DNA of 58,340 nt, filler included, from Dirinaria sp. TL-2023a (lineage: Eukaryota): assembly GCA_051941275.1 (NCBI GenBank). It is 7 parts of 7 records of this genome, joined end to end, with 100 filler letters (N's around TTAATTAATTAA, not from the genome) between each part and the next. Parts side by side here need not be neighbours in the genome. Positions count along the whole stretch, not along the records: positions 8,396 to 16,679 come from JAVEBF010001207.1; 6 more parts are not named here. One strand, written 5' to 3'. The notes under the pieces were generated by a model. That model did not search any database and was not told the DNA's origin. It was given only the letters and a program-made list of their open reading frames with translations. Shown here piece by piece: positions 8,396 through 21,500 of the stretch. Made by a program: the position numbers and the translations under genes. Each line of letters begins with the position of its first letter. Within the stretch, counting starts at the first letter, position 1.

Positions 8396-9870
8396 CATTG
8401 AACTTCTCAGTCGATTTCTCTCAATTGAATTAAGTAGATTTTTGTCGAATTTTGTATGTGACGACGAGCGATTGCCTTTAATTTGTTCGTTGTTATTAGC
8501 TCAAACAGAGTTTTAGTTGAAAAATCTTTGGAAGCCCAAGCCTATAAGCGTTATTCACCTGCTGTCTGTAGCAGATTGCATTCTGTTTTTCACGCTTCTT
8601 GTCAGGAACCATATAATGGTCGAGAAAGACGACGATTTTATCTTCGAATTAACTCTATCTGAGCTAGGATCTTCCTAGACTGAGATTTAGGAGCCTTTAT
8701 TTGATGTCCCTTTTTGGATTTAGATAGCATAAAAAGAGACAGCTTCTTTTCGACGAGTAGCGAGAGCTCTTTCTGCTCCATTTTCAGAAGCATCTCTGAA
8801 CGCATGCATGCTTTCGAGTTTCTGTCACTTATTGTTGCTTGATTTTGAGTCTGATAATATAGCTCTGTCTTTCTTGACAATCGCCAAGGACCAGGATAAC
8901 AATTGCTCTGGAATCTGAATATGAAGTCCAATTTGATAGTAACTTCTTCTTTCTTCCAAATTCTTGAAAAATTGATTAATCTTTCAAAGTCTTTGTTCGA
9001 TCTTGAATCATGAGTCGATTTTGCGAATCGAAAATTATCTTGACTTCGAAGACCCAGTAAATTCAACGATGATAAAATGCATCAATGAAATGAACTTGCT
9101 GAACTCTTCAGTGGAGTTTTCAAGTCTTTTCTCTCAATTGAATTAAATAAATTCCTTTCGAAGAGTTTGCATGTGACGACGAGCAATTTTTATTGTCTCG
9201 TTCGACGATAGTAGCTCGAAGAGAATTAAGACATTCATGTTTGCTGTCATTCTTTGTAATTTGAGTTGGGATTGATATTGCAGTTAGCCTTGTCTCTCAC
9301 GAGTACCGCCAAGTAGAAACGGATCATTTGCTCTGTATACGAAGCCCAATTTGACAGAAACTTCTTCTTTCAGTTTTGTGAAAAACTTGGTGATTTTCGT
9401 GTTGAGATGTGTATCGTCGATTAAAACTGTTCTCGGAAAACGCTTTTTCCCTTTGAACTTCAACTAATTGGTCCGAGCGAATTCGGTTTAAGTTCAAGAA
9501 TCTCTTGAGAATTCAATTAATACAAGATCAAGAATAGAGTCTTTCGCGTGCAAACTCGATTGTATGAATCGAGCTGCGAAACATGAACGTTTAGAGTCTT
9601 GATTTGATCTCGGATCAAAGATCATTTTGATTCCGAGAATTCAATAAATCGAAGATTGATAAAATATATTAATGAAATCAACACATTGAGCTTTCGAGTT
9701 GTTTCTTTCGATTGATTTTTGTCAATTTTTCTCGAGTTTTGCATGTGATGACGAGCGATCGATTTTTCTCATTCGTTGTTATTAATTTCAAGAGAACTGA
9801 GACATCCGTGCTTGTCATCACTTATTGTTGCTTGATTTTGAGTCTGATATCGCAGCTCTGTCTTTCTCGA
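8396..9870. repeat. Degenerate, AT-enriched direct-repeat array (about 3 units spaced about 570-720 bp apart); probably a decayed gene or transposon
   Basis: The block TG(C/T)ATGTGA(C/T)GACGAGC recurs near 8455, 9170 and 9745. Positions 8825-8874 and 9818-9867 match at 46 of 50 bases. No long intact ORF spans the region. Confidence 0.7.
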
Positions 9871-10438
9871 GTATCGGTCTCTTAATCCTGATCAATCCGC
9901 TCAACAGAGTCTTGTCCGATCATGATTTTGAGTTGTTTCTTGCGAAAATGATTTGTAGAATATAGTCGTAGATGTGATGGATCGTGAGAACGTATATATA
10001 GCATATGCAATCTTGACCGGTGCGAGAACCTCGCGCTAAGATTCGCAGAGACGTCTGCGTCTCCTGAGAAGGTTAAGAATGGAAATGTCTAAGCAATTAA
10101 ATGAAGACCGTTATCAATATTAAACTGATTAGCCTCGACCTAGTATTTCAATCTCCATAAAGACTTCTGGGGGGATTCGAAAGTGCTGGGGAGCCTTTTC
10201 AACCGTTCGTTAATTCGTGAAAAAGTCGTTCACCGAGTTGTGGCTCATCATGGTTGTCGCGCAATTAGCTCTCGGTATCTGAGTGTTCAAGACCACTATT
10301 CTGACTCGACAACGATCCAGAATTGAAAAACCTTTCTGACGAGAAATATCTGTTCAGATCCCTTGTATCTTCATCAATTCGTTAATCCGTTATTGGATCC
10401 AAATGCGTTGTACAGCACGAAATTCAGCACCAGGAGGA

Positions 10439-14636: not shown

Positions 14637-15545
14637 TCATATGTTGTCTGCATCTTCTCGCTCATGTGCCTCCTTCTCTACCAGGAATCCTTGGGCATCG
14701 AATGCCCTATGATCTTCTGCCCAACCTTTCAGCTCCTCGAAATTCCGACAAATTCTTGGAAATCCTGCTCCGAGAAAACCATTGACCGTATCCACCGCAG
14801 GCTCAATTGTTGAATCAGCCGAGCATAAGATACCCTGTCGAATGTAATCAAAACAGTGCGCAACGTGTGGCTTTCTTTCTTTTCCAAGGTCAAAGTCCTC
14901 TAACTCCCCGTCTTTTCTATTCGAATAGTACGCTCTTCGGACTGTGTACTAATTTGTTTCAGCTAAATCTCGCGTGAAAGGATACGCCAAACTCACAAGA
15001 CAATGCAGCTGGTGAAAGGCGCTGAGAACCGACGTTTCTGAAACTATGTCCGTGTTCTTGATATAGCCCAGGCCATCTACATTGGAATTTCAGAAACAGT
15101 GCCTTTAACGCTGATAGGATGTCACACTCACTGGGAATCATCGAGTCCCATATAGGCTCCCTCTCTCCATCTCCTGGTGGAGGTGTGGCAAAGCTGCTGT
15201 TATACTGGAAAGTCTTTCTAGAGGCGCTGATTGGTACTTATTAGACGAGTTAGCACCTTGAAGCAGCGACACTGCAAAATCTGGGTTTCTACCTCGAGCT
15301 GCCACATCCGAAGAAGAACTTGTCACGCCACAGTTGTTACTCCGTAGTACACCAAAAACATATCCAGTCACACCGGCGACAACAATGAGTATTGCAGAAA
15401 GCCCGCAGAACCAATATCGCGACCATTTCAAGCTCTTGGTGCGGCAGTCAAGTTCTTCTTGAAATGATTTCTCGGCAATTTCGCCATCCACTAACCGATC
15501 GTAATCCTCTGTTCTATGATGGGACCCCGCGAAGATTTTATACAT
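14637..15545 (-). CDS. UstYa-family (DUF3328) oxidase, 249 aa, 4 exons (15545-15293, 15236-15132, 15076-14997, 14948-14637)
   Basis: The spliced length is 750 nt, in frame and without internal stops. It has an N-terminal TM helix (WFCGLSAILIVVAGVTGYVFGVL), WDSMIPNGLGYI, two HxxHC motifs (FHQLHCL and HVAHCFDYIRQGILCSADSTIE), and CRNFEELKGWAEDH. Confidence 0.93.
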
Positions 15546-16578
15546 GGCTGATTGTCATATGCTTGTCTTGATCTTAATAAGAATGCAACGATGGACATTC
15601 GAGCTTACATGGTAGGAATCACCTCTGTAACATTACCTCAGCAGACCAGGCTTACACAAAGCAATACAGTATCTTTTGCCAATTCAAGGCCATTCGCCAT
15701 GCTTCCCAGCCTTAGACTCGGCGTCTTCTAGAAGCCTATTTGGAAGGAGCGTGCATGATCAAGCCATGACACCATGCTGCATCTAACCCTACCTATTGGC
15801 TCGCTATCACTATACCCGCCGAACTAAAGCATCCATGTCCACATGCATTCTACATTAGGCTACACAACATCATCCTCCTTAGCGTTACCACCACCAAACA
15901 GGAACCGTCCTACGAAAACTCATGAGGAATTCCTTTAGATAACGTGTATGTACAATGTACGGATGCGTTGTTCGAGGAGGAGCATTGACTCATCTGCGAC
16001 CCGTCAATCCGTCCAACCATTTCGTCCATATGATGGACCCCTCTCTTCTATGCAAGCCATCAACCGTGGCCAGCGACCTAATATGGATGGTTGCTCGAGA
16101 AATCACTGCGACCACAATCCTCTTAACCTATTCTCCTCCCACCTAATCGGTAGTGGCTGCACGTTGAACCCCATGGATTGGGTCACACTGGTCAGAAACG
16201 CAGTGAACAAACTCCAAGTCCGTCAAAGTGCTGTAACCAACCAGGCAAGTCCGAGGGCTAGAAGTTCTAGGCCGAAAATCAAGGAATACGCAGTATGACA
16301 TCGGATTAATCAAATATAGTCCGGTGAATTGAGGAGTATCCCGGACCGAGATCGTCGATGACGCATCTATCACGCACGCTTCGAAATAATCGACGAGATC
16401 GTGTAATTCCCCGGGCGGTATATCAATAGCGAAATGCCAATCCAGCTCCCCAAAAAAAAAGACCCTGAATTCTCCACCGAATCTGTGACTCTACTCAATC
16501 TTCAACCAATATCACAAACCCCCACAGTCCTGGAAAACAAACGAAACACCTTCAGTTTGAATTAAAGAAACAGAAACA

Positions 16579-16679
16579 ATGTATTTCCTCCGCGCACCTA
16601 TCACGTTACCACTCCTCCTCCTCGCTTCCTCAACCCTCACAGTCATCGCTTCACCTCGTAAGTTCCCCCACTCTTTCAC
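16579..16679 (+). CDS. First exon (signal peptide) of a secreted protein, truncated by the contig end; candidate RiPP precursor
   Basis: AAACA-ATG start; MYFLRAPITLPLLLLASSTLTVIASP (hydrophobic core, likely VIA|SP cleavage), then a consensus GTAAGT donor at 16658. Confidence 0.7.
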
Positions 16680-16779: not shown

Positions 16780-17128
16780 AGAGACAGAGAGAGTGTGTGT
16801 AAACGAAAGCAGGGACAAGAAATGGAGGATATGGATAGAGAACGACAACACAGAAGAATTCACTCAGTAATTTCTTCATCGAGTTCGAAATAGCAAGAAT
16901 TTTCTAATCTAAACTACACCTTATCCCAAGGATATGTGTACATTCATCCCCAGAATCTGAAGAAAAGAGTGTCCAAAACCCCCCCTCCCCCACAGTTGTA
17001 CATTCAAAACCAGAAACCAAAACAAACAAAAACTTTTCAAAGCCATTACCAATTATCGCACATCGAAAGTAATGAATGTATGCATGCATACAACCCTGCT
17101 AACCCCCTACCTAATCAACTTTCTTCGC

Positions 17129-18562
17129 TTAAGCCTGGAAAGCCTTGCCACCGGCCTTAGCACCGAAGATCTTAGAGCGTTTGTTCTTTTTGCACATCGT
17201 GGAAGTGGCATTACCACTTCCACCTGTAGGCTGCGCCACGGGCGTTGCGGTGCCCGAAAACGTGCGATCGCTGAGGCTGATCGTTGGAACGCCCGGCTCG
17301 GCGGACTTCAGCGCCGTTGGTTGGACAATCTTGGTGCTTTTGGGCAACGTCACCATTTTGGTCGATTTGGCCGCGACTGGAGACGAAGGAGAAGAGGCTT
17401 GCACAGTCACTGTCACCTTGTCGGTCACGGTTTTGGCTGCCGGAGGGGAAGCTGCAGCCGGTGGTGGAGCCTGTGGTGCTGGAGCTGGGGCCTGTGGTGC
17501 TGGGGCTGGAGCCTGGGGTGCTGGAGCTGGAGCTTGTGGTGCTGGGCTAGCGGCTGGAGCTGGAGGAGGCGTCGATGCAGCCGGGGCTGTGGTTGCTGCT
17601 GCTGGCTCACTATTCGCGTTGCCGGAGCCTGCGAGTTTCTCTCCAGCGGGTAAGGCGGTTGGTGCGTTGAGCGGCTTTCCAGCTGCGATGGCAGAGATCT
17701 GGCCAGCGACACCGGCGGAGTCGAGGTTTTGGCCTTGTTTGAAGCTTATCGACGACTCTGCCTTGTTATTCGAGGCTTGGCCATTGACGTTGATGTCCAT
17801 GCAAGTGGTGTAGAATTCCAGCTTTCCGTTGGGAACGCCGGGAGTCCCTGGAGCCGTCGGCCAGTTCCAAACCCAGTAAAGTGTATAAGGCTTGCCGGAA
17901 GGAGCGTCGGTAGGGAGCTGGAGGTCGTTCTGACACCACAAATCGGCTCCCATGGTCTGGTCTGCCGTGTGGGCGTCCTGCTTTTGGCGGCTTTGTGAGA
18001 TAGCGCCACCATTGACTTGGTAACACTGGCCATCATCATAGTTGAACGTGGCCAGGAGTTTGCCTTTTTTGTTTCCTCCGCTTCCATCCGTATTCCATTT
18101 ATTGAAGATGTCGAGGAATTTGTCATCTGGGGAAGATTGAGTAGTTCCATAGACATATATCGTACCGCGGTTCTCCGGCTTTCCGGGTTGATTTTGGGGT
18201 AGTGTGACGTGGCCGTTCTCCTGGTAGCGGAGAGCGACCATGTCACCGGGAGCGGCATTGAGCCTAGGGCTGCCAGCAGTCTGAGTTTGCTGTTGCTGGT
18301 GGCCCGGGAAGCACATTGTGTCGGATGGCAGGACACCTTGAGTCGGATCACGGCCGTCGGGAGGGAGGAGGTAGACCATGCTCTTGTCAACAGCGGCATT
18401 GCCCTGTCGCTGGACATTACCGCGTGCGAAGCCAGGGGCGCCAGTGAAGGTACCGTTGGGAGCGATGACATCGAGTTGTTCGATCCACGAGTGTGCGGAG
18501 GCGGAGGCGGAGAGAAGAGCCAACGCCGCCAGGGCGTTAGCTGCTGTCTTGAGCGAATGCAT
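17129..18562 (-). CDS. Secreted LPMO-like protein with N-terminal His and Pro/Ala/Thr-rich C-terminal region (477 aa, intronless)
   Basis: ATG at 18562; the signal peptide ends ...SASASA|HSWIEQ. Other motifs are YQENGHVT, four Cys in the globular domain, and YTLYWVWNWP...EFYTTCMDI, which resembles the last strands of LPMO-fold proteins. The ORF is well supported; the LPMO-like label is inference. Confidence 0.8.
   Translation of the reverse strand: MHSLKTAANALAALALLSASASAHSWIEQLDVIAPNGTFTGAPGFARGNVQRQGNAAVDKSMVYLLPPDGRDPTQGVLPSDTMCFPGHQQQQTQTAGSPRLNAAPGDMVALRYQENGHVTLPQNQPGKPENRGTIYVYGTTQSSPDDKFLDIFNKWNTDGSGGNKKGKLLATFNYDDGQCYQVNGGAISQSRQKQDAHTADQTMGADLWCQNDLQLPTDAPSGKPYTLYWVWNWPTAPGTPGVPNGKLEFYTTCMDINVNGQASNNKAESSISFKQGQNLDSAGVAGQISAIAAGKPLNAPTALPAGEKLAGSGNANSEPAAATTAPAASTPPPAPAASPAPQAPAPAPQAPAPAPQAPAPAPQAPPPAAASPPAAKTVTDKVTVTVQASSPSSPVAAKSTKMVTLPKSTKIVQPTALKSAEPGVPTISLSDRTFSGTATPVAQPTGGSGNATSTMCKKNKRSKIFGAKAGGKAFQA
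17466..17549 (-). repeat. Coding minisatellite, about 4 x 21 bp (APAPQAP)
   Basis: GGAGCCTGTGGTGCTGGAGCT-like units in tandem, encoding the Pro/Ala linker. Confidence 0.85.
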
Positions 18563-21500
18563 TTTGCGCGTTGTAGGTAACGAGTTTTCTGAACTAGGTA
18601 GAGCGTCCTGCGCGATGTATGATGAGATCACGGAGATCGAGAATAGATTATGAGATGATGTTCTACTTGGGAAGTATTCTTGAAGTGGGTAGAAGTGAGG
18701 TCGTGGGGAAGAAAATCTAGAACTAACAATGCATGGCCAGCATGTAGAGATCTTATAACAAAGCTAGAAAGACAATAGAGAAGTGAAAGAGGGCCGTTGA
18801 GGTTGGGACAATGGCGTCGTCTACAATGGATTGTGATGAAGAGGCAAGTAGGAAAAGGTGTTCCCAACAATGGGCATTCACCGAGGGAAGAACAAAGAAG
18901 AGGTGAACAGGCACCCGCAAAGCTTTGAAACTCGACAATAGCATTGTGATCCAGGTGCACATTCACTGAAGGGTTGAAGGTGGGATCTGTTCATTACTTT
19001 GGTGGGACGGTCACTGGAGTTGTTGAAAGCCAATGGAGTTGGTGGGCGCGTTTGGTGCCAAACGCAGTCGGGGTTCACATCACAGTGGCAATTCATAGCT
19101 GATATCCAGTCAAAGTCTATGTCTTCGTGCAATGGAGAGTCTAGATGCGGCTTCGTGTATCGCAGGCCTAGTGAACTCGTTCAACGATAGGCGCAATGCT
19201 CGACGGCGTTTGGTTGGCGATGTGTTTACGGGTCAACAGAGCTATTGTTGGGTATCAGGAGGCATCCGCGAAATGGCGTGCTTCACTCAACACCAGCTGG
19301 TTCTTGATCTGGATCTATTCCTGTGGCCAGGAAGCGATAGAAGTTTTACGGGGAATGCGCTGTTTGAGGGTTGAGGTTCCATGACCAGTGAAAGGTGCAG
19401 TGCGATCACCAGCTGGGGGTTGTTTCAGGTTGGTTCTATTGGACGATGTTTCGTGTTTCGTGTTTTCGTGTTTCGGATTCGGGATAAATTTCGGGATTTC
19501 GGCTTCTGCCCCCGGTTTCGTTCTTGGCGCCCGAGGTTCGTGACAATAGGAAGCACTCACTGTACCTTAGAAAATGATGTATGAACGAAGACAACCAATT
19601 TCACCCCCTCACCTACCACTTTCTATCGTCAAATCCTTCGGTTGTATCGCAAACGTTCATTAGCTGCTTTGCCATCATGCGGAGCAATCATCGAGACATG
19701 GACTGGCTCCTCCCCATGAAGACTGACCCCTCTACTATGATGGAAGATGACTCCTCTAAGGAGGATCTGTTCATACACAATCTCATCATACATTTCTAGC
19801 TCTCCAATCCAGGCTCTGCAGAAAACCTGGTCATATTGAAATTGTTGCCGAGCACGGTACGCAATGCAATTGGGTTCCTGCGTTGTGGAACACATTACCC
19901 CGACAAGCCGTTCAATCCACGCTTGCCTAGCACCGAGCCCACTCGTCGGTATACCTAACTTCTCGTCTAGCAATGCCTCTCTTGTTCCTGTGCCTCGTCT
20001 CAGTTCCGTTGTGGCAATGCTCCGAAAGTCTCCTCATCGACACCTGATAACGCCAGTCGATCCTCCACCAGCCGCGTCTGTTCTGTGATCTCTCCTTTCC
20101 TAAACGTAGTCTTCCTTTAGGAAGTTCCTCGCTGGCCCGGTGCAAGATAAAAATGGCAGGAACGTTGGTGTGAAATTTTCCTGGAGAGCTAGCGAATGGG
20201 CTTGTCAGTTCTAGGCTCATCGGCGACAAGAGGGGTGGCCCTGTAGCCATCGAAGGGGGCGTCATCGGGCATAACCGTACGTCTGGGAAGGAACGTTACA
20301 CCTGCATGGGCAGGAGAACGGCGGGGACTGATTGCTGTATCAAGATGCAAGGTGAGAATGGGAGATAGCGTGAGCAGATGCTGTTAACGGAGATGTAGAG
20401 TGAGGGCGATCAAGAGAAAAGACGTTCCTGCAGTGAGCACTCTTATCTTGATAATACATGAAGAGCGTGGGGTGGGAAATCATACATATGTATCCTGCAT
20501 GCATGTACCTGCCCTCATGAGGAGAAGCGGCAAGGATATGCACTGCAAAGCTCCGATTGCCGTACAGAGTCACAAGACGCCCTCGCTCGAGATGATCGGA
20601 TGAGCTGTTGCAGAATTACATCGCGAGAGCCTGAACCGCCATCGTCGGCGATTATTGACTGTTTTGATAGCATGAAGCCGCGTGATGGGCTCGTGAAATC
20701 AGGAGCAGTCGTTTGGGAGCCGGCTCTTGAATGAATATTCTCTAGTTGCTGAAGATGGCTTTCGCTCGACAACTCTAGAGACGCAACACCATCCTACGTG
20801 CAAGCCAGGTTGCCTTGTCAAAGGAGAGCAATCCTGCTGGTCTGCTCCGAACCACATTCCAAGGGGCTTCGACATGTGACACTGGAATTTGACGAAGAAA
20901 ACCAGCATCGAGGAAAGGACAGCCTCTGACCGTGTCCAGGACCATGTTTCGACGTCCATACAAACTCAGCACCATTCCACAAAGTAAGTTGCTGGCAAGA
21001 CCACAGAGGTGGAAAGGCGCGGAATAAGAACGTTGAATTCCACAACGCGGCAAGCCTGAAGCTTTTCAGGAGTCGGAAAGTTTCTGTGTCACCGCCACAA
21101 AGGCTGTTCGTTTGGTGCGTCTTACTGCGAGGCTAAAGTATCCTAATGCACAGATGACACCAGCAAAAATAATGACCACCTGGTAAGCGAGAAACCGTTG
21201 GAATTGCCTGGTCGTCCCTGGCCCAAGAGTGGAGAGAGCGCGGAAATAACGCCACGTGCAAAAAGATGTCAGCAGATGCGTTGATTATCATCCTTTTTTT
21301 CATTCTTTGCATTCTCACATACATATTCGGTCGGCTTTATCGCGCTCTTGCAACACCGACGGCTGATCTGGATGTGAGTTGCTGCAGCATCGAAAGCGCT
21401 TGGGAACGAGGATGCAGGACCTCAAGGTAGGGATTCTACGAACAACGGTCGCTTCCCTAATTTCCGTCGTACTCGTACCATCATGAACCAAATATGCCAA

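Follow-up and report, generated by a model that had tools for sequence, protein, structure and literature searches.

The stretch of DNA analysed here, which we call the window, comes from the Dirinaria sp. TL-2023a genome and is 58,340 nucleotides long, filler included. It consists of individual contigs, each about 8.3 kb long, joined through N spacers. One of these, C1207, carries at its right-hand end a gene for a UstYa-family (DUF3328) oxidase, UstYa-1, and, diverging from it on the opposite strand, the first exon of a peptide precursor gene. The remainder of the precursor gene, together with a second oxidase gene, UstYa-2, is found on another contig, C921. The genome (G000) comprises 27.7 Mb in 3105 contigs. 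The nearest named relatives of the genes studied belong to lichen-forming Lecanoromycetes (Alectoria, Pseudevernia, Stereocaulon and Lepraria), and the only runs that contain the stretch are lichen metatranscriptomes, which makes a lichen-forming fungus the most likely source. As the contigs are separated by N spacers, the DNA after position 16780 is no neighbour of the locus, and the DUF7492 gene on the contig that follows in the window (17129-18763, minus strand), whose product has a Pro/Ala-rich repeat tail and is unrelated, was rejected as a cluster member. At the other end of C1207, positions 8396-10100 are AT-rich (36-41% GC) and hold degenerate internal repeats without a Pfam match, possibly a decayed transposon. 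Neither a Pfam match nor a tblastx match to related loci came from the 14 frames in the left part of this contig.

Table 1. Coordinates of the genes and features at the locus (window positions unless a contig is named).
Feature	Position	Strand	Description
Contig C1207	8396-16679		carries UstYa-1 and precursor exon 1
UstYa-1 exon 1	15293..15545	minus	start codon, cytosolic N-terminus, membrane anchor; gene model and RNA
UstYa-1 intron 1	15237..15292	minus	56 nt; gene model and RNA joint
UstYa-1 exon 2	15132..15236	minus	gene model and RNA
UstYa-1 intron 2	15077..15131	minus	55 nt; gene model and RNA
UstYa-1 exon 3	14997..15076	minus	first HxxHC motif (HQLHC, 15014-15000)
UstYa-1 intron 3	14949..14996	minus	48 nt; gene model and RNA
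UstYa-1 exon 4	14637..14948	minus	second HxxHC motif (HVAHC, 14867-14853), stop codon
Intergenic region between start codons	15546..16578		1033 nt
Precursor exon 1	16579..16657	plus	79 nt, 26 codons and 1 nt, phase-1 end
Precursor intron 1, first 22 nt	16658..16679	plus	GTAAGT at 16658; C1207 ends at 16679
Precursor exon 2, coding	C921 10591-10200	minus	open for 392 nt in the phase set by exon 1
UstYa-2	C921 9139-9993	plus	one 84-nt intron, 256 aa, HNLHC/HISHC, converges on precursor
Rhodopsin-domain gene (PF20684, Pth11-like)	C921 ~7425-6065 (L017:1065-2425)	minus	no CFEM seen at N-terminus
Carboxylesterase gene (PF00135)	C921 ~5027-2914	minus	Pfam
UstYa contigs with PF20684 within 10 kb	C921, C402, C207, C24, C250, C119, C30, C432, C25		

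The UstYa-1 gene encodes a protein of 249 amino acids with no internal stop, and all three of its introns are of the GT..AG type. The product has a single hydrophobic helix at residues 49-67 (approximately 15401-15345), with the HQLHC motif at residue 141 and HVAHC at residue 174. The last exon matches PF11807 with an E value of 1.2e-13 (51.9 bits, cut-off 25). Transcript evidence came from a close relative, in the form of unstranded contigs from two RNA runs of one sample. Contigs from both runs skip all three introns exactly as modelled, and the matching Logan protein, P0001, is 94.8% identical to UstYa-1 over 249 aa. The gene model, the PF11807 match and the RNA of the relative therefore agree with the initial annotation, which had described an intact UstYa gene with both HxxHC motifs and three introns.

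The initial annotation also placed a truncated partner gene on the opposite strand, about 1.03 kb away, and its start codon indeed lies at 16579, 1033 nt from that of UstYa-1. RNA contigs of the relative enter the region between the two start codons as far as 15682 on one side and 16207 on the other, from which we infer a shared divergent promoter region between these positions. Exon 1 is a predicted ER signal peptide, judged by eye, with a basic start, a hydrophobic core and V-x-A ahead of S-P at its ...VIASP end. The same signal-like exon is present in two related metagenome loci, L020 and L022, and in named homologues. As the annotation had it, this exon is followed by a GTAAGT donor and the contig end, and it is at this donor that the RNA of the relative leaves the window. 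Transcription and splicing at the 16657 donor in the relative are seen in two RNA contigs, which run to exactly 16657 and then share the same letters, absent from the window. In the genome, the first 22 letters of this loose end match only once, at C921:10570-10591 (minus strand), with 0 mismatches although 3 were allowed. This site is a single base away from the contig end and directly follows the G of an acceptor. Both exon 1 and the C921 repeat exon are single-copy in the genome. Joined, they encode a precursor of 156 aa with eight VDVADGF cores, the last of which ends at the stop codon.

The truncated gene suspected of being the precursor is thus borne out as one: followed past 16679 through the RNA loose end, it has a second exon on C921 that holds eight tandem cores between KR/RR sites. 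Within the window itself, as the annotation stated, neither repeats nor KR sites can be seen. The proposal that a repetitive second exon could explain the assembly break was set aside as unsupported, as the repeat exon is whole on C921 and the break falls inside precursor intron 1, where approximately 35 nt are absent if the intron measures 58 nt as it does in a relative. The link between C1207 and C921 rests on the contigs of the relative, and a chimeric RNA contig could have joined exon 1 to the repeat exon of a different gene. We consider this very improbable, because two RNA contigs depart precisely at the donor and continue identically, and because the match is single, exact, at a contig end and keeps the reading frame. 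In addition, a Logan protein of a relative (P0124) reads in one frame through exon 1, a 58-nt intron and the repeat exon, and both L020 and L022 hold the same two-exon precursor gene unbroken.

Each core in the precursor follows a short acidic spacer (EGEG, DDEG and similar), and KR or RR stands between every pair. With its signal peptide, judged by eye, and its cores separated by KR/RR, the protein has the features of a Kex2-processed repeat protein (KEP). For three of the eight cores, K-F or K-I stands between the core and the KR site, so that the core ends would be non-uniform unless extra trimming takes place. The eight 27-nt copies all differ from each other. The variation falls on every third codon position (9/9) and on none of the first and second positions (0/18), showing that it is the peptide, not the DNA, that has been kept. 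Phe is the sole aromatic residue of the core, and none of the eight cores contains Tyr.

Searches for the precursor returned 7 proteins and then 39 representatives. Of these representatives, the 27 shorter than 260 aa were read, 25 of them carrying the motif, and the 12 longer than 260 aa were left out. Two proteins with different motifs, P0131 and P0157, were dropped from the family. The resulting set of 28 homologues (25 plus 3 from the first search) contains 106 cores with the pattern [VI]-D-[VI]-[AGS]-[DE]-[GA]-F, a pattern partly imposed by the search. When single positions were left free, the last residue was F in 94 of 94 cores and position 3 was V or I in 104 of 105. This Phe and the beta-branched residue four places earlier are the two most fixed positions of the core, and in 21 of the 28 homologues the protein ends exactly on the core Phe. 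Named members come from Lecanoromycetes (Stereocaulon, Fulgogasparrea), Eurotiomycetes (Penicillium verhagenii) and Sordariomycetes (Xylariales, Diaporthales and others). An Atlas search with a precursor homologue gave leads only, with a best score of 0.85 and no structure match.

On C921, UstYa-2 ends 206 nt past the precursor stop on the opposite strand. Its product matches PF11807 with 87.7 bits (cut-off 25), has an N-terminal membrane anchor, seen by eye in the alignment, and is 32% identical to UstYa-1 over 94 aa. No solved structure matched the UstYa-2 profile at an E value of 1. The length of a 1887-nt RNA contig, set beside the 1687 nt expected for merged precursor and UstYa-2 minus the UstYa-2 5' UTR, suggests that the two transcripts may have been merged through a 3' overlap. 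Upstream of UstYa-2 lie the rhodopsin-domain gene and the carboxylesterase gene, and an orthologue of the latter, 65-70% identical, occurs at L020:4477-5917, upstream of UstYa-2 in both loci. The initial annotation had suggested looking for further UstYa, tyrosinase, transporter or peptidase genes beyond the precursor. A second UstYa gene is present there. No tyrosinase, methyltransferase, transporter, peptidase or NRPS was found in 9 + 58 flanking frames of C1207, C921, L018 and L020, a scan with frame limits of 65-100 aa, below which short exons could be missed.

The conserved columns of the precursor alignment were too short for a locus scan, which was therefore run with the UstYa-2 alignment. 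It returned five metagenome loci, four of them distinct (L020 = L021). In three of the four (L018, L020, L022), UstYa-1, the precursor and UstYa-2 occur in the same order and orientation, UstYa-2 being convergent and UstYa-1 divergent relative to the precursor. The fourth, L019 (2.1 kb), shows UstYa-2 and the precursor and then ends, too short to show UstYa-1. By eye, the UstYa-2 protein of L018 resembles Penicillium proteins. Between the two UstYa genes of this locus, at L018:2200-2420 on the minus strand, lies what by eye is a single-core precursor ending GVVVADGF, which repeat-based screens would miss.

Among named species, the precursor and an enzyme gene carry consecutive locus tags in Stereocaulon virgatum (009689/009690), Penicillium verhagenii (007230/007229), Rostrohypoxylon terebratum (468784/468783) and Parahypoxylon ruwenzoriense (007621/007620), and UstYa-1 and UstYa-2 are two tags apart in P. 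concentricum and P. robsamsonii. We also used the longest-contig value as a proxy for shared location, in place of coordinates. By this measure 13 of 26 precursors share a value with a UstYa-1 or UstYa-2 match; the other 13 have no co-located enzyme among the matches, which counts against the cassette. The same proxy joins UstYa-1 to a UstYa-2 match in 5 of 15 UstYa-1 matches. None of the 15 proteins returned by the UstYa-1 search is from Xylariales.

The PF20684 gene stands head-to-head with UstYa-2 in C921 and also in L018 (L018:4-680). With the L018 protein as query, the best of 20 genome matches is the C921 gene (61% over 111 aa, E 2e-45), the next reaching 35%, and contigs bearing UstYa genes hold six of the seven top matches and none of the 13 others. 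PF11807 matches fall on 16 contigs, or 15 loci after merging C1207 with C921. Among the best 150 of 160 PF20684 matches, a member lies within 10 kb of UstYa in 9 of these 15 loci (Table 1), against an expected 5-12% per locus, or up to 22% at the highest density. The binomial p for this proximity ranges from 3e-6 to 2e-3, although a shared preference of the two families for secondary-metabolism regions could account for it. No PF20684 gene lies in the retrieved flanks of L020, where the esterase orthologue is directly upstream of UstYa-2. It is conceivable, though in our view unlikely, that the mature Phe-terminal peptide is the ligand of the neighbouring Pth11-like protein, which would then be its own receptor. 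If true, the role of dikaritin-type peptides would extend beyond that of toxins to that of ligands for a large class of orphan receptors in fungi, and the Pth11-like link would offer candidate ligands for these receptors.

Several other UstYa loci of this genome have features of their own. On C402, at 16106-15591 on the minus strand (L033, L024), a repeat precursor with ten EDAIAYPDSY units between KR sites lies approximately 0.9 kb from a UstYa gene, and P0157 of Xylographa vitiligo has similar repeats. C207 holds another at 16761-16348, minus strand (L035), with a signal-like start and four HDA-x-AAYGV-x-E units after KR, approximately 1.5 kb from two UstYa matches. Divergent UstYa pairs 4.5-6 kb apart occur at C30 29428-34236 and C432 3485-9637 and show no repeat precursor; next to the pair on C30 is a frame that by eye looks methyltransferase-like. 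A 5-mer repeat scan near the UstYa genes of C432, C30, C119, C24, C250 and C25 found no repeat precursor, a scan that a single-core precursor would escape.

The three genes very probably form a RiPP cassette that acts on the VDVADGF precursor. As to its product, we lean, with moderate confidence and largely by analogy, towards a dikaritin-type ribosomal peptide made by the three-gene cassette from VDVADGF and cross-linked through the terminal Phe. By comparison with known pathways, the signal peptide would take the precursor into the ER and Golgi, where Kex2 would cut after KR/RR and carboxypeptidases would trim the basic tails. The acidic spacer may be trimmed by some peptidase or may serve in recognition; no peptidase for the acidic spacers and the K-F/K-I tails is encoded nearby. 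The two membrane-anchored enzymes, with copper bound at their HxxHC pairs, would then oxidise C-H bonds in the core, as might be expected from CctR, a membrane-anchored luminal binuclear copper enzyme that uses HxxHC pairs (PMC12435403). In the least certain steps, one enzyme would activate the beta-carbon of Val/Ile-3 (or Asp-5) and the ring would close onto Phe-7 without a tyrosinase step, by analogy with victorin and with the beta-carbons of asperipin-2a.

Against a cross-link of this kind, ustiloxin, phomopsin and asperipin-2a use a phenol oxygen that Phe does not have, and the scanned frames near the precursor held no tyrosinase. DUF3328 enzymes are also reported to hydroxylate, halogenate and desaturate (PMC12435403, PMC10880069), so that a ring is not required. 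It is therefore possible, if on balance doubtful, that the same cassette only decorates a linear peptide, through beta-hydroxylation, desaturation or chlorination of Val/Ile and Asp, and leaves the Phe free as a recognition or activity residue. Such chemistry has precedent in the phomopsin DUF3328 homologues, which form dehydro-Ile, dehydro-Asp and dehydro-Pro (PMC10880069), and in the hydroxylation of a beta-carbon by CctR (PMC12435403), and it would suit a core rich in Val/Ile and Asp without a phenol. However, the five dikaritins covered by a 2022 review are all described as cyclised by UstYa homologues (PMC10512285), and the most strictly fixed positions of the core are its Phe and, four places earlier, the beta-branched residue.

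A further reading takes the enzymes away from the precursor altogether, which would yield an unmodified, mating-factor-like linear peptide while the UstYa enzymes act elsewhere, for example on a non-ribosomal peptide. Mating factors are linear, 78% of catalogued KEP genes have no DUF3328 nearby (PMC7329392), DUF3328 enzymes also serve the non-ribosomal cyclochlorotine pathway (PMC12435403), and a receptor-like gene adjoins the cassette in two loci. We nevertheless judge this reading improbable. Both enzymes directly flank the precursor, a position kept across three fungal classes, scans of C1207, C921 and the retrieved loci gave no NRPS domain, and mating-factor genes almost never have DUF3328 neighbours according to the same catalogue (PMC7329392). 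A modified peptide thus remains our preferred product, and the three-gene set, common to lichen fungi, moulds and wood-decay fungi, likely makes one.

How the cassette relates to dikaritins depends on the definition. In the broad sense, the term covers KEP precursors that UstYa homologues cyclise, of which the 2022 review gives five examples (PMC10512285), and at the gene level the precursor is flanked on both sides by UstYa genes here and in L018, L020 and L022. The original five-gene definition, as quoted in PMC12048977, asks for a tyrosinase and a methyltransferase; in the scanned frames we found neither, nor a transporter or peptidase. The core also has no Tyr to act as cross-link donor in the manner of ustiloxin, phomopsin, asperipin or epichloecyclin. 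With Phe the sole aromatic residue and no tyrosinase, the enzymes must act outside the Tyr-ether pattern of most known dikaritins. Like the VDVADGF locus, the ustiloxin and phomopsin systems have a signal peptide, repeated cores, acidic flanks, KR sites and two or more UstYa genes beside the precursor, but they need a core Tyr, a tyrosinase (UstQ), a methyltransferase and other enzymes (PMC6514808), none of which were found here.

Two further systems bear comparison. In asperipin-2a (aprA, aprY, aprT, aprR), likewise a small cluster without a tyrosinase, the DUF3328 enzyme is proposed to suffice for closing the ether rings and the ring chemistry uses beta-carbons (PMC6514808). It differs in its core, FYYTGY, which is linked through Tyr, in having one DUF3328 enzyme, and in its transporter and reductase, neither of which was found at the VDVADGF locus (PMC6514808). 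Victorin, from Cochliobolus victoriae, is also made from a multi-core Kex2-type precursor whose core ends in Phe, and its ring joins the side chain of this C-terminal Phe to an internal Leu (PMC9233826). Its core is another one, the product is chlorinated and heavily modified, and its cluster encodes peptidases (PMC9233826), whereas here only the two UstYa genes are constant.

It is common for a KEP gene to lie beside a DUF3328 gene, and the kind of system is therefore already known: the Umemura 2020 catalogue counts 1758 such genes, about a third without Tyr (PMC7329392). A Monosporascus homologue of our precursor, RYP52811.1 (P0139), appears in Table S2 of that catalogue marked 'DUF3328 in vicinity' and as type 0, apparently a stand-alone entry, and the Cytospora homologue ROW00561.1 is absent from that table (PMC7329392). 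As far as these two look-ups show, the VDVADGF family and its cassette were not recognised in the catalogue. The conserved motifs named in section 10 of PMC6339444 do not include a VDVADGF-type core. Our literature search, which mostly did not extend to subscription chemistry journals, found, among the papers listed, no description of the core, the family, the product, the cassette or a Pth11-DUF3328 link, and there is only a small chance that the product has already been characterised.

In lichens, Pasinato and Singh (2025) described Clans R1 and R2, with HxxHC DUF3328 signature genes, typically two in R1 (PMC12048977). Clan R1 combines these with a tyrosinase, an O-methyltransferase and an FGE-sulfatase and R2 with flanking GNAT acetyltransferases (PMC12048977), and neither set was found in the frames scanned here. 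For neither of these conserved clans did the survey report a repeated precursor, which its authors described as a mystery (PMC12048977). In contrast, the VDVADGF locus has a repeat precursor, which in this lichen fungus lies between two UstYa genes and is transcribed in a relative. The constant part of the system is three short genes that also occur in culturable moulds, which makes a lichen RiPP directly testable. What is new relative to the systems above is a minimal KEP-UstYa cassette, conserved and Phe-terminal, whose precursor is now identified.
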